Shown here: piece after piece, positions 11,654 to 13,060 of the stretch
Layout: each line of letters opens with the position of its first letter
How positions within the stretch are numbered: position 1 is the stretch's first letter
IMG/VR virus record: IMGVR_UViG_649989947_000010
Coordinates: 1 to 47,812 of that record
Length of the DNA: 47,812 nt
Reading direction: 5' to 3' (one strand)
DNA from: a virus
Lineage: Duplodnaviria > Heunggongvirae > Uroviricota > Caudoviricetes
The notes under the pieces: generated by a model
What the model saw: the letters and a program-made list of their open reading frames with translations, nothing else
What the model was told of the DNA's origin: nothing
Databases searched by the model: none
Program-made: the position numbers and the translations under genes

Positions 11654-12118
11654 CAGGGTTTTCGTCATGGTTAGCGACTTTGCGGCGGTTTAGAAACTGA
11701 CCATTAAAGTAAATGCAAACGATGATCTGATGATGGTAGCGGCCTAAGAAGCCAGACGCCACGGGGTATGAGTCGTCCCCCGTCAAAAAATCGACCGCAG
11801 AGTGTCCCCGTCTGTGTATTAGGGAACGGGGAGGCACAACAGGTAAGGGCGCTGGTGTGATTAACCAGATGAACGAGAAGGGGCCATCTGTTGGTCAGCG
11901 TCCTTTCCTGTTGCGTCTTCTTTTCAGCGTAACAGCGGTGCTTAACAGCACTTTGGGTACAGTTCCACGAATTTACGGGTATATCCCGTCATGCTGAAAG
12001 CGCTAATCACGCTGGAAGCCAGGGTTATGCATCCCCTGTTACCGAATTGCAGCCAGGGCGCGGTGCGCCGAAAAGCATACGGAGGTGGAAGCCCTCGCCG
12101 GAGACGTACCCGGCAAGT

Positions 12119-12194
12119 GATGGTGTAGCTCAGCGGTTAGAGCGGTTGACTGTTAATCAACGGGTCGATGGTTCAAATCCATCCACCATCGCCA
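12119..12194 (+). tRNA. tRNA-Asn (anticodon GTT), CCA encoded
   Basis: 76 nt cloverleaf: acceptor GATGGTG/CACCATC, anticodon loop CTGTTAA, T-arm GATGG-TTCAAAT-CCATC. Confidence 0.9.
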
Positions 12195-12196
12195 AT

Positions 12197-12272
12197 GCCG
12201 GTTTAGCTCAGTTGGTAGAGCGCCTGCCTTGTAAGCAGGATGTCAGCGGTTCGATTCCGTTAATCGGCACCA
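12197..12272 (+). tRNA. tRNA-Thr (anticodon TGT), CCA encoded
   Basis: 76 nt: acceptor GCCGGTT, anticodon loop CTTGTAA, T-loop TTCGATT, 3' ATCGGCACCA. Confidence 0.9.
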
Positions 12273-12275
12273 GCA

Positions 12276-13060
12276 CAACAGGTAAGGGTATTTTGCGACG
12301 TCGGAGATCGCCGAGCTTGGCAGAGGGTTCGAATCCCTACGAAGTACCCTTACCGTTGTGATGAATGCGCAGGCTGATGCGCGAAAGACATTGCAGCTAT
12401 TGCGGAAAAGAGCTGTTCGGCGGGGCAATTAAACGCCCGTGAGAGTCTGAAATAACCGCAAGCCGGAGATCAGCACCGGTCATCACAACACAACAGGTAA
12501 GGGCATTCTCCCTTATGGGGCTTGGCTTAAATGCATCGAGTGCTCTTACCGTTGTGATGAAGTGCAGCTCTTTGAAGCAACCAGAAGATAAGCATCTGGC
12601 TTCACAACATAAACCGCAGGAACGACCAATAAACGGTAGTCCGTATGGAGAACACCCCGTTGAGGAAGAGGCCTGGCCGGAACCGTAACCGGCACTACAA
12701 CGTTGAGAACACTGGCGTAACGGGGTCATATCCCAATCTACGAATAAATGTTGCGTTGCAGCGTGACAACCAGTGTTCTCAACATTGTGGTGAATGCACA
12801 GGCTGATGTGCCGCAACTACAGTAGTGCGCGCTTTGCGGGGCTTGCTACAACCCTGTGTCGGAGTTCAGCACCGACCATCACAGTTTGATTCTCTGGCAT
12901 GAGCATAACGCTGAAATAAGTCCAGCCTGGTGCGGCCCGATCACCCGCCGTTAGCTCCACGAAACGGAGCACGTAACAGGTAAGAGCATTCTCCTGTAAC
13001 GGGTTCATATCCCAATCTACAGGTCCACCAAGAATGCTCTTTCCGTTGCGGTGAATGCGG
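12276..13060 (+). repeat. Array of four degenerate ~90-100-bp long-hairpin elements with T-arm-like cores
   Basis: Units at ~12276-12372, 12476-12563, 12696-12795, 12971-13060; outer stems CAACAGGTAAGGG/CCCTTACCGTTG or GTTGAGAACACTGG/CCAGTGTTCTCAAC; inner GGGTTCGAATCCC or GGG(G/T)TCATATCCC; 3' tail GTGATGAATGCGCAGGCTGATGCGCG. Confidence 0.5.

Follow-up and report, generated by a model that had tools for sequence, protein, structure and literature searches.

Five hairpins in the ban operon leader of a P1-like phage belong to a widespread family of probable RNase III-type stems with swappable inserts

In the early region of phage T7 (R0.3 to R1.3), host RNase III cuts hairpins that lie between the genes of a polycistronic transcript. 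In the Qin prophage's dicBF operon, Faubladier et al. are said to have placed, in 1990, an RNase III processing site upstream of DicF. For the late transcript of lambda, Daniels et al. reportedly described sites of RNase III processing in 1988, and PMC7547250 cites a 1988 paper on such sites. A 190-nt form of DicF is absent without RNase III, and its 5′ end has been determined by primer extension (PMC10448788). STnc100 and PasD, which resemble another constituent of the locus described here, are prophage small RNAs (bioRxiv 10.64898/2026.05.13.724894).

The DNA analysed here, a stretch of 47,812 nucleotides that we call the window, is that of a P1-like phage. Five hairpins, at 11829-13050, flank its genes for tRNA-Asn and tRNA-Thr, and this array lies within the untranslated leader of the C1-repressed ban operon (Table 1). 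Transcription of the array belongs to the ban operon, whose start is marked by the C1 operator, and the hairpins sit between this C1-controlled promoter and ban, on the strand of the tRNAs. A search for promoter-like sites in 11300-14500 predicted none. The hairpins belong to a widespread phage family of probable RNase III-type stems with swappable inserts, some of which resemble pieces of tRNAs. We consider it probable, at roughly 60%, that RNase III processes these stems and thereby divides a polycistronic leader of small RNAs and tRNAs into units. A first-pass annotation of the DNA had offered RNase P/E punctuation and a small-RNA family among its options; the second is close to this explanation, and the first came near it in proposing a processing role, but the enzyme best supported is RNase III, not P or E. 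No description of the scaffold was found in the accessible literature.

Table 1. Features of the ban operon leader (positions in the window).
Feature	Position	Strand	Basis or remark
C1 repressor operator ATTGCTCTAATAAATTT, Pban promoter region	11434-11450	+	Identical to the stretch annotated in P1 as Obana/P1ban
DicF-precursor-like module	11495-11650	+	Annotated 'dicF-like region' in P1; terminator scan match
tmRNA-like module	11655-11748	+	Weak tmRNA_permuted match, 24 bits
Scaffold hairpin 0	11829-11921	+	dG -48.4 kcal/mol, z -5.9; inverted repeat I2
tRNA-Asn(GUU) and tRNA-Thr(UGU)	12119-12272	+	ARAGORN and Rfam
Scaffold hairpin 1	12274-12360	+	dG -51.3 kcal/mol, z -5.2
Inter-hairpin module A ('137-nt element')	12355-12489	+	96-98% identical in lambdoid, Stx and T1-like phages
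Scaffold hairpin 2	12480-12560	+	dG -37.8 kcal/mol, z -4.7
Inter-hairpin module(s) B	12551-12703	+	Repeat family D2; invariant among six P1 relatives
Scaffold hairpin 3	12693-12792	+	dG -55.6 kcal/mol, z -5.4; three-way junction
Inter-hairpin module C	12783-12885	+	Repeats D1 and D2
Scaffold hairpin 4	12972-13050	+	dG -41.9 kcal/mol, z -4.2
STnc100/PasD-like module, closed by UGCGGUG/CACCGCA	13047-13176	+	Rfam STnc100, 37.8 bits

The array is surrounded by further structured elements. The DicF-precursor-like module, homologous to the 5′ part of the Qin 190-nt DicF precursor, ends with an intrinsic terminator identified by the terminator scan (11627-11646 plus a U-tract). It is followed by the tmRNA-like module, in which ARAGORN finds no tmRNA. 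Its resemblance to tmRNA is confined to the region of a tag-template-like frame (14-24 bits against cut-offs of 47-84); this frame, at 11716-11748, has no start codon (GCA AAC GAT ... TAA, ANDDLMMVAA*), and divergent phages keep eight versions of this tag, each of 10 codons. With its CCA end, tRNA-Thr directly abuts hairpin 1. Downstream of the array, the STnc100-like module has a terminator-like end at ~13150-13176 and is followed by a U-tract, with the first ORF (13201) close behind; Qin has a homologue of this module between dicF and dicB.

The hairpins reported in the first-pass annotation are real and lie far beyond chance expectation. In RNA folding, none of 200 shuffles folds as well as any of the five, and a repeat finder recovers the shared arms and tails. 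Each stem comprises ~20-23 bp, rather than the 12-15 bp first assigned to the outer stem, with a 1-nt bulge and a mismatch at fixed positions around a variable insert; the common form is ...ACAAC-A-GG-U-AAGRGCAU / RUGCYCUU-U-CC-GUUGU.... Four units and a partial one near 11835-11900 had been listed. These units are present, but they number five, the supposed partial one (hairpin 0) being a complete hairpin and among the two most stable. RNase III needs roughly two helical turns of double-stranded RNA, for which the length of these imperfect stems, within a transcribed leader, suffices. The scaffold matches no Rfam family. Permissive Rfam searches of the P1 leader, the mEp460 leader, three other loci and the downstream region returned sub-threshold STnc100 and tmRNA matches alone, besides microRNA-precursor matches on long hairpins that are due to chance.

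Relatives of these hairpins turn up in 224 phage records; lambda has one immediately past tR′, and another belongs to the Qin dicBF operon. In the alignments, which consist mostly of closely related P1-like and lambdoid sequences and contain some invariant columns fixed by the search patterns, pairing of the stems is maintained across copies by compensatory changes. Counts of G-U against A-C in the stems are 41:6 (with 12 C-A at a doubtful D-arm position set aside) and 43:6. G-U outnumber A-C by ~7:1, an excess that suggests RNA of the plus strand. tRNA genes within 1.5 kb of copies are always on the same strand, 90 to 0 and 145 to 0.

These observations bear on whether the repeats are elements of the DNA, either miniature inverted-repeat elements (MITEs) or recombination or cruciform sites, with an incidental potential for RNA hairpins. 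The inverted-repeat ends, the module boundaries at the arms and the near-identical modules in unrelated phages are what such an element might leave behind. The strand-specific excess of G-U over A-C, however, is not expected of a DNA duplex element, and the orientation relative to tRNAs is constant. MITEs would appear as many dispersed copies in either orientation with target-site duplications; the hairpins are instead few per genome (in Enterobacterales genomes each locus has a single copy), their setting is always a phage leader, they point the same way as the tRNAs, no target-site duplications were noted on reading the loci, no transposase or integrase is associated, and the ends are unlike the integron attC core. 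We therefore regard a DNA-level element, MITEs among the first-pass options included, as highly improbable. The integron attC site as such, with its core consensus GTTRRRY, was also considered and set aside, as the core does not fit by eye and there is no integrase.

Comparison of the window with P1, P7, D6, Ro157 and SJ46 points to exchange of whole units. Indels among these phages have both ends in scaffold arms or in shared insert motifs, and tRNA genes occupy the same slots as hairpins in relatives. Hairpin 2 stands in the place of hairpin 1 in P7 and Ro157, hairpins 3 and 4 have recombined through a common motif in SJ46, and the hairpin 4 insert of Ro157 is short of 13 nt. Because the same scaffold recurs, it may double as a recombination joint, which would explain why relatives differ by whole modules. 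Since the SJ46 and Ro157 copies are damaged and a P1 CRISPRi table lists the region, including plp and upl, as non-essential, individual units are dispensable. In accessible papers, nothing beyond this table was found on the P1 ban leader, plp or upl.

The insert of unit 1 consists of a D-arm-like element (GCGA-CGTCGGAGA-TCGC), an 11-nt linker and a T-arm (AGGG-TTCGAAT-CCCT). It has no anticodon arm, and it keeps the D-loop GG and a perfect T-loop. This is the sole genuine T-arm among the five units. A T-arm-like core had been attributed to the units in general; units 3 and 4 carry an anticodon-arm look-alike, and units 0 and 2 have neither motif. ARAGORN and Rfam (RF00005) detect the three real tRNAs only and none in unit 1 or any other hairpin, even at E<=10, so that no hairpin has a four-arm cloverleaf detectable by a covariance model. 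The earlier remark that the first unit does not fold as a cloverleaf thus holds, the linker taking the place of the anticodon arm. A tmRNA would combine a tag frame with a tRNA-like domain that has an alanine-type acceptor and a CCA end; the insert has U3-G70 in place of G3-U70 and no CCA. It is carried by 108 viral contigs and is found in six scaffold variants, in one of which the outer stem is unrelated. With a 29-pair model of the unit-1 relatives, 91% of cells are paired and 11 pairs show compensatory change, a result matched by none of 500 shuffles; sliding the pairing partners lowers pairing to 35-56%. Cleavage by RNase P is still plausible, but for this tRNA-like insert only.

The tRNA arms of unit 1, the tRNA genes in equivalent slots and the dispensability of units could also be seen as traces of decay, the hairpins being neutral remnants of tRNA or other RNA genes in a recombination-prone tRNA region, with no present function. 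Compensatory substitutions and the G-U bias, however, indicate selection for pairing, and the same elements recur at 75-98% identity in unrelated phage families. Moreover, tRNA arms are confined to unit 1, and no full-length tRNA with its D-arm and T-loop, and hence no ancestor, was found in 2.9 million viral contigs. Decayed tRNA genes, which had been listed among the options, do not agree with this combination of purifying and compensatory selection, and we judge neutral remnants to be a remote prospect.

The motif GGG(G/T)TCATATCCC in units 3 and 4, whose TCATAT had been misread as part of a T-arm, is an anticodon-arm look-alike (U33-CAU-A37). Arm A of hairpin 3 reads GGG-GUCAUAU-CCC and the hairpin 4 insert GGG-UUCAUAU-CCC. 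Consensus folding of aligned units, which had been proposed as a check, revealed a shared structure: for units 3 and 4 together with lambdoid relatives, RNAalifold predicts 32 pairs, 10 of them with compensatory change. At least four hairpin backgrounds contain the NUCAUAW loop on a GGG/CCC stem, with closing stems that covary, and the CAU is changed in only 6 of at least 250 family copies. Other anticodons in this context are limited to the six point variants within the family, the remaining matches being unrelated and mostly from environmental viral contigs. No complementary target of the CAU loop was found within the window. In lambdoid copies, CGGGCUCAUAACCC equals the anticodon stem-loop of a tRNA-Met gene found at 100% identity in 5426/5426 E. 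coli genomes (median 4 copies per genome). We take this gene to encode the initiator tRNA; the lambdoid match comprises 14 identical nt.

Such resemblances raise the question of whether the scaffolds mainly make and present small RNAs that imitate parts of translation RNAs, namely an anticodon-less tRNA core and an initiator-tRNA anticodon arm, next to a tmRNA-like tag template. Working in trans, such RNAs would be decoys or competitors for host factors that cut or bind tRNAs, for instance anticodon nucleases (toxin or defence), RNase P or the 30S P site with IF3. Both the unit 1 core, with its intact D-loop GG and T-loop in six scaffold variants, and the constancy of the CAU loop, with its match to the E. 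coli tRNA-Met stem-loop, speak for display, as do other inserts with two T-arm-like hairpins and the location in early, repressor-controlled leaders, a frequent phage site for counter-defence functions. However, the inserts of units 0 and 2, of the lambda copy and of most copies in Enterobacterales genomes have no resemblance to tRNA, CAU is the only anticodon displayed, where a general set of decoys would be expected to show others, the mimic stem is limited to 3 of the 5 pairs found in a real anticodon stem, and damaged copies persist in SJ46 and Ro157. We consider this proposal unlikely. Quite unlikely, too, is a scheme in which RNase III cuts out tRNA-part mini-RNAs beside the tag template, and in which these form an RNA-only array, expressed early by several phage families, that diverts or saturates such host factors, among them anticodon nucleases, RNase P, SmpB, and IF3 with the 30S P site. 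Processing by RNase III is nevertheless unlikely to be the whole function, because a signal for processing alone has no need of a conserved insert, whereas the tRNA-like core and the CAU loop are both kept across different scaffolds. These inserts may act on their own.

The 3′ tail GTGATGAATGCGCAGGCTGATGCGCG had been assigned to all units. It is complete after unit 1 only; in unit 3 it covaries to GCACA..TGTGC, in unit 4 it is a shorter variant, and GTGATGAA is all that unit 2 has. This tail opens a second kind of module, located between the hairpins. At its end the module has a CCGG..CCGG hairpin and then YCAYCACAAC, and GUGRUGA pairs with UCAYCAC to close it. Module A is composed of GUUGUGAUGA, the tail hairpin GCGCA-GGCUGA-UGCGC (12367-12382), a central part, the CCGG..CCGG hairpin and UCAUCACAAC; RNA folding and a count of X′/X complementarity show its closure by the X′/X helix. 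Module C runs from GUGGUGAAU and the tail hairpin GCACA-GGCUGA-UGUGC through GUCGGAGUUCAGCACCGAC-CAUCAC. In module B, a ...CACAAC or ...CUACAAC end comes after each of two hairpins, and the module gave no significant fold of its own. The tail stem covaries, with GCGCA/UGCGC, GCACA/UGUGC and, in P7, UCGCA/UGCGA. A box C/D k-turn (GUGAUGA...CUGA) was considered and rejected, as its key A can also be G and changes in concert with UCAYCAC downstream. A CsrA sponge was likewise dismissed; the GGA motifs are mostly within stems.

Many copies begin 5-12 nt past the intrinsic terminator of an upstream small RNA, a placement that fits the release of small RNAs from read-through transcripts. The same leader position, often just past terminators and before the first ORF, and the terminator-like end of the STnc100-like module downstream could also befit cis-acting regulators of the operon, either a put-like antiterminator RNA or an element that controls the stability or translation of downstream genes. 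Blastn comparison of the P1 and mEp460 leaders with the HK022 immunity region, which we take to be the location of the put sites although its record does not annotate them, revealed no similarity at the sequence level. Several copies lie downstream of the only nearby terminator, and copy number varies freely among close relatives. A cis-regulatory role is, in our judgement, very unlikely. Two further comparisons concern the distribution of these leaders. None of the P22 small RNAs from a 2026 RNA-seq study matches the scaffold, and the leader is not present in CPS-53 of E. coli K-12. Separately, the start of CPS-53 yfdP matches the ORF that follows a lambdoid hairpin.

In P1 and RCS47, part of the array is annotated on the minus strand as the genes plp and upl, and the corresponding ORFs (12397-12816 and 12817-13146) are present in the window, where they would encode Plp of 139 aa and Upl of 109 aa. 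Neither has a Pfam match or a conserved frame. A 196-nt indel between the window and P1, not a multiple of 3, falls within the plp ORF, P1 plp overlaps trnT by 30 nt, both ORFs are disrupted, replaced or absent in P7, D6 and SJ46, P7 has no such annotation, and the sequence varies by compensatory changes in RNA stems. This agrees with the initial view that no plausible protein is encoded. plp and upl are probably spurious ORFs, and protein coding is scarcely credible as an account of the region. Small peptides starting at GTG/ATG-AAT-GCG were considered as a separate candidate and discarded, the changes there being compensatory in the hairpin and not synonymous.

For the preferred reading, processing by RNase III, we propose the following course. 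From the C1-repressed Pban, the five plus-strand units would be transcribed within a ~1.7-kb non-coding leader that also holds the DicF-precursor-like RNA, the tmRNA-like module, two tRNAs and several STnc100-like modules. Each scaffold would present its variable insert, and host RNase III would cut the scaffold and so split the leader into discrete pieces. Such cuts could free or trim the flanking tRNAs and small RNAs, part the mRNA downstream (with the small ORFs, trnI and ban) from the structured leader, and release the insert as a short RNA capped by its stem. Some 1.7 kb of P1, plp and upl included, is then better read as a polycistronic array of structured RNAs, and the P1 ban leader, lambda's late leader and Qin dicBF, all of them textbook loci, share one conserved RNA scaffold. 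A simple rule would follow, in which tRNAs and small RNAs are cassettes that the temperate phages of Enterobacterales package, process and exchange. In addition, the look-alikes of tRNA parts, together with the tmRNA-like tag frame, could reveal RNA-based interference with host translation or with tRNA-directed defence.

Among known RNAs, two groups offer a comparison for the unit 1 insert: tRNA-like processing signals (plant mitochondrial t-elements and MALAT1 mascRNA) and domains that resemble tRNA but have no anticodon arm (the tRNA-like domain, TLD, of tmRNA and bacterial YrlA). Like these, the insert keeps an acceptor-like stem, the D-loop GG and a T-arm, and sits in a transcript that needs cutting; it differs in having no free CCA end and no G3-U70. 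In YrlA (RF02553) the order is T-arm, acceptor hairpin, D-arm in the Ro-binding stem, whereas in unit 1 the D-arm precedes the T-arm, and the sole RF02553 match, which covers the two real tRNAs, has 27 bits where the cut-off is 69. The inter-hairpin modules share with STnc100/PasD (RF02076) the start with a GGUGAAU-hairpin, the CCGG..CCGG-CACC end and the closing helix. The stretch 13047-13167 reaches 37.8 bits, below the gathering score of 47, and the scaffold hairpins have no match and fall outside this family.

The T7 R0.3-R1.3 hairpins resemble the P1 array in that several long imperfect hairpins punctuate one polycistronic phage transcript. They have no sequence relation to the P1 scaffold, separate mRNAs rather than tRNAs or small RNAs, and contain no conserved inserts. 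The lambda late-leader hairpin (tR′/6S RNA), in contrast, is a relative by sequence. Located at 44,779-44,871, directly past the tR′ U-tract, it has arms nearly identical to those of P1, GCACAACAGGUAAGAGCAUUG / CAGUGCUCUUUCCGUUGUG, and shares their bulged A and U-U mismatch. Next comes a module that GUUGUGCUG/CAGCACAAC closes, of which the stretch AAUUAAGCGAAU.CCGGAAGCAGAACCGGAUCACCAAAUGCGUACAGGCGUCAUCGCCGCCCAGC recurs inside a hairpin insert of P7 and D6. Unlike in the P1 array, the lambda hairpin occurs once, in a late operon under Q antitermination, and its insert does not resemble tRNA.

The Qin dicBF hairpin (873-958 of locus L474; NC_000913 1,649,172-1,649,257) has the bulge and mismatch architecture of the P1 scaffold, with 7 bp, a 1-nt bulge, 2 bp, a mismatch and then at least 10 bp, in arms reading CCAUAAC-G-CG-A-AAGCGCAUGG / CCGUGCGCUU-C-CG-GUUGUGG. 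Its fold surpasses shuffles only modestly (z -2.1). In contrast to the P1 array, Qin has just one copy, the insert is unrelated, and tRNA genes are absent. Counting 190 nt back from the DicF 3′ end leads to 946-951, inside the 3′ arm of this hairpin. The P1 scaffold is thus homologous to a hairpin at a mapped RNase III site, the Qin cut being placed by length arithmetic, and we infer that the P1 copies may be cut likewise. Like the P1 array, the Qin hairpin lies in a repressor-controlled operon, from which in Qin small RNAs arise by processing, and the neighbours of the Qin hairpin, a DicF-precursor module and an STnc100-like module, are homologous to those of the P1 leader.

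Megablast assigns the region 11440-13210 to P1-like phage-plasmids, with identities of 98.6-98.8% to vB_EcoM-813R1 and RCS47; P1 itself aligns with 97.7% identity over 88% of the query. In the P1 annotation the corresponding stretch sits between dmt and ban, after the C1-controlled operator/promoter Obanab/P1ban (identical in the window at 11418-11470), a 'dicF-like region', trnA (Asn) and trnT (Thr); two minus-strand ORFs, plp and upl, come next. Further downstream, at 13201-14245, P1 tciA/tciB/tciC are replaced by a hydrophobic ORF of 78 aa and an SPFH/Band 7 protein of 275 aa (Pfam E 1e-30) that related records label 'putative serine protease'; RCS47 and Ro157c2YLVW share this arrangement. 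Elsewhere, at 22963-23032 (minus strand), the IS10/Tn10 antisense RNA known as RNA-OUT is matched with 98.8 bits, and an IS10-type element is thus inserted in this P1-like genome.

Folding and a repeat finder bear out the repeated hairpin array proposed in the first-pass annotation. The array in fact holds five long hairpins, all on the plus strand and each folding far better than dinucleotide shuffles, and a second type of repeat that had been overlooked. The long hairpins share a 5' arm, GCACAACAGGTAAGGG, and a 3' arm plus tail, CTTACCGTTGTGATGAATGCGCAGGCTGATGCGC, which form the scaffold holding a variable insert. The second repeat is a CCGG..CCGG hairpin followed by TCATCACAAC, and the array therefore alternates long hairpins with inter-hairpin modules. 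These modules begin with GUGRUGAAU and a small hairpin and finish with the CCGG hairpin and UCAYCAC; their ends are complementary and covary (GUGAUGA/UCAUCAC, GUGGUGA/UCACCAC, GCGGUG/CACCGC, and GUGCUG/CAGCAC in lambda). Each of the four variants seen most often has its matching end 5-mer no more than 230 nt further downstream in 85-97% of its copies, many of them redundant, against a chance expectation that we estimate at roughly 20%.

Scaffold hairpins and tRNA genes of the leader region (window coordinates)
Feature	Position	Strand	Evidence
Scaffold hairpin 0	11829-11921	+	z -5.9 vs shuffles
tRNA-Asn	12119-12194		ARAGORN + Rfam
tRNA-Thr	12197-12272		ARAGORN + Rfam
Scaffold hairpin 1	12274-12360	+	z -5.2 vs shuffles
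Scaffold hairpin 2	12480-12560	+	z -4.7 vs shuffles
Scaffold hairpin 3	12693-12792	+	z -5.4 vs shuffles
Scaffold hairpin 4	12972-13050	+	z -4.2 vs shuffles
CAU tRNA	14273-14348		ARAGORN + Rfam

The insert pattern of hairpin 1 was recovered from 108 viral contigs as 34 distinct sequences. A 29-pair model applied to 18 representatives shows 91% pairing, with changes on both sides in 11 of the 21 outer-stem pairs; the set is rich in close relatives, and the D-loop and T-loop were held fixed by the search pattern. None of 500 shuffles reached the observed values, and pairing falls to 35-56% when the 3' partners are slid; one variant has a wholly different outer stem and still keeps its pairing. 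Hairpins 3 and 4 and their lambdoid relatives, likewise rich in close relatives and gathered with a fixed CAU loop, are predicted by RNAalifold to share one three-way junction; it has 32 pairs, and compensatory changes occur in 10. G-U pairs outnumber A-C mismatches by 41:6 and 43:6, an excess expected only if the plus-strand RNA folds. The structure is under selection, and on that strand. All tRNAs within 1.5 kb on the retrieved contigs are co-oriented. These figures speak against two of the five alternatives considered, mobile elements acting at the DNA level and neutral remnants of tRNA genes.

The insert of hairpin 1 is a tRNA-like core, GCGA-YGUCGGAGA-UCGC, an 11-13-nt linker and AGGG-UUCGAAU-CCCU, in which the D-arm-like part keeps GG and the anticodon arm is absent. 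Its acceptor-like helix is extended by the outer stem, and position 3:70 is a conserved U-G. A search of the viral collection for a full-length tRNA with these arms returned none. Hairpins 3 and 4 hold GGG-[G/U]UCAUAU-CCC, and lambdoid copies carry CGGGCUCAUAACCC, the anticodon stem-loop of a tRNA-Met gene, which we take to be the initiator tRNA; the gene with that stem-loop is present at 100% identity in 5426/5426 E. coli genomes, with a median of four copies each. When each anticodon position was relaxed in turn, only six variants (UAU twice, CCU three times, CGU once) appeared beside at least 250 family copies with CAU. The inserts might act as decoys or mimics; no other alternative has evidence that speaks positively for it, and this one is compatible with excision by RNase III. 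Other family members hold unrelated inserts or two T-arm-like hairpins, so the scaffold is constant and the insert swappable; two of the inserts are themselves conserved.

Parts of 12270-13180 were matched by sensitive blastn in 224 phage records, which include P1-like, lambdoid, Stx and T1-like Klebsiella phages, Uetakevirus and an Ackermannviridae phage. The module of 137 nt that separates hairpins 1 and 2 (12355-12489) shows 96-98% identity in Stx2 phages, in mEp460, in which it is found downstream of the repressor gene, and in the T1-like IME207, in which it lies 3' of a consensus promoter and 5' of tRNA genes. Parts of it also occur in the 35-38-kb Escherichia phages SKA5 and vB_EcoM-720R4. 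It is far better conserved than its flanks, and may itself be a small RNA.

Alignment of six P1 relatives establishes that the hairpins are modular, the differences being whole modules. Hairpin 1 follows tRNA-Thr in P1, D6 and SJ46, and hairpin 2 takes its place in P7 and Ro157; the window has both, separated by the 137-nt module. At the position of the window's hairpin 4, P7 and D6 have a tRNA-Ser(UGA) cassette; Ro157 has an additional tRNA-Tyr, and in SJ46 hairpins 3 and 4 are fused via their common insert motif. Leader tRNA content varies accordingly in the fetched loci (L005 2480-2566, L006 2307-2393, L007 1957-2043), and the P7 record leaves its tRNA-Ser(UGA) unannotated. The tRNA-Tyr of Ro157c2YLVW is located between Asn and Thr; colicin E5-type anticodon nucleases target both Asn and Tyr tRNAs. 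The module differences also disrupt the frames of plp and upl, which speaks against reading this stretch as coding for the annotated proteins. Neither ORF has a Pfam match, and P1 plp overlaps trnT on the opposite strand by 30 nt (2300-2677 vs 2254-2329 in our NC_005856 locus, L001). Both annotations have been propagated to RCS47 and JL22 even though relatives do not conserve the frames.

Some neighbouring modules resemble known RNAs. At 11655-11748 a conserved stretch, GCGACUUUGCGG..UUUAGAAACUGACCA..AAAGUAAAU, precedes a tag frame without start codon (11716-11748; GCA AAC GAU ... UAA, ANDDLMMVAA*); the E. coli tmRNA tag is ANDENYALAA. Divergent phages, one of them a Klebsiella Ackermannviridae phage, carry eight variants, each of 10 codons and with AA or VA at its end, and the module often adjoins the tRNA-like hairpin insert. 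A tRNA-like domain with a CCA end was not found in it, and Rfam tmRNA models give just 14-24 bits. An STnc100/PasD-like module, sub-threshold in Rfam, lies at 13047-13176, directly before the first ORF of the leader. A conserved non-coding module, …GGTTGTAACACGGCG.CTGGCACATGCGTCGTTAGCGGTCTGG…GGTAGCCGGAATGTGCAAGTCA…, without an Rfam match, lies between the CAU tRNA and ban (14350-14545; L003 2252-2366; L010 1341-1493) and is also present where the mEp460 early-left leader starts (89% identity), as well as in Enterobacter phage BUCT554 and in 48 fetched loci. In Klebsiella phage T751 (Ackermannviridae), ~2.6 kb without an annotated feature (L009 480-3108) hold a scaffold hairpin, tail and CCGG modules and a tmRNA-like frame, together with a 67-nt tRNA-like sequence lacking an anticodon arm (1137-1203; GGCGAAG...TTCGATT...CTTCGCCA), which ARAGORN does not call.

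Structure, strand, homology and modularity are established by these observations; that the scaffolds are RNase III sites in P1, and what cutting would achieve, we infer. Derepression of Pban would yield a single long RNA, and cutting of the scaffold stems would release five kinds of product: a DicF-precursor-like and tmRNA-like 5' part; the tRNA-Asn/tRNA-Thr pair, its CCA end abutting hairpin 1; the inter-hairpin modules, similar to STnc100 and PasD, two prophage small RNAs bound by Hfq; the excised inserts; and the downstream mRNA. The tRNA-like insert of hairpin 1 may also be a target of RNase P, and the repeated scaffolds could supply homology for cassette exchange. Put-like regulation is a further alternative to such processing.

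When genomes were scanned with the 5' arm, true hairpins turned up across many genera of Enterobacterales, a single one at each locus and several abutting tRNA genes. It also returned one identical sequence, lambda 44,740-44,900, on low-coverage contigs of about 20 unrelated taxa, most likely through contamination with lambda control DNA. Assemblies with this late-leader piece on short or low-coverage contigs include Psychrobacter, Pseudoxanthomonas, Algoriphagus, Tardiphaga, Oceanobacillus, Segatella and others (loci of this type include L359, L360, L362, L375, L380, L384, L397, L398, L403, L406, L415, L419 and L426).

No Rfam family matching the hairpins or the lambdoid leader was found, nor a description of the scaffold family in the accessible literature. 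In lambda, the hairpin starts five bases past the tR' U-tract and has, like the P1 copies, a bulged A and a U-U mismatch; it is probably an RNase III site, the exact cleavage positions being a lead. A 1988 paper, cited in PMC7547250, reports that the late transcript of lambda has RNase III processing sites. Comparison with Qin dicBF of E. coli K-12 (L474) provides a firmer link. A hairpin of the same architecture lies upstream of dicF (873-958), the region 3' of it is homologous to the P1 'dicF-like region', and the dicF-dicB spacer holds, directly before dicB, an STnc100-like module (1150-1290) like window 13047-13167. The P1 region matches the precursor of DicF (190 nt) in its 5' portion, and does not match the 53-nt RNA. 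The 190-nt species is lost without RNase III, and its 5' end was assigned to an RNase III cut by primer extension (PMC10448788); 190 nt counted back from the DicF 3' end lead to 946-951, within the 3' arm of the Qin hairpin. That individual family members are RNase III sites was already known for Qin and, probably, for lambda. Three points are new: these sites are members of a single conserved scaffold family whose inserts can be swapped and which extends across several phage families; P1 carries the scaffolds in an array with tRNAs; and parts of tRNAs are imitated by some of the inserts.
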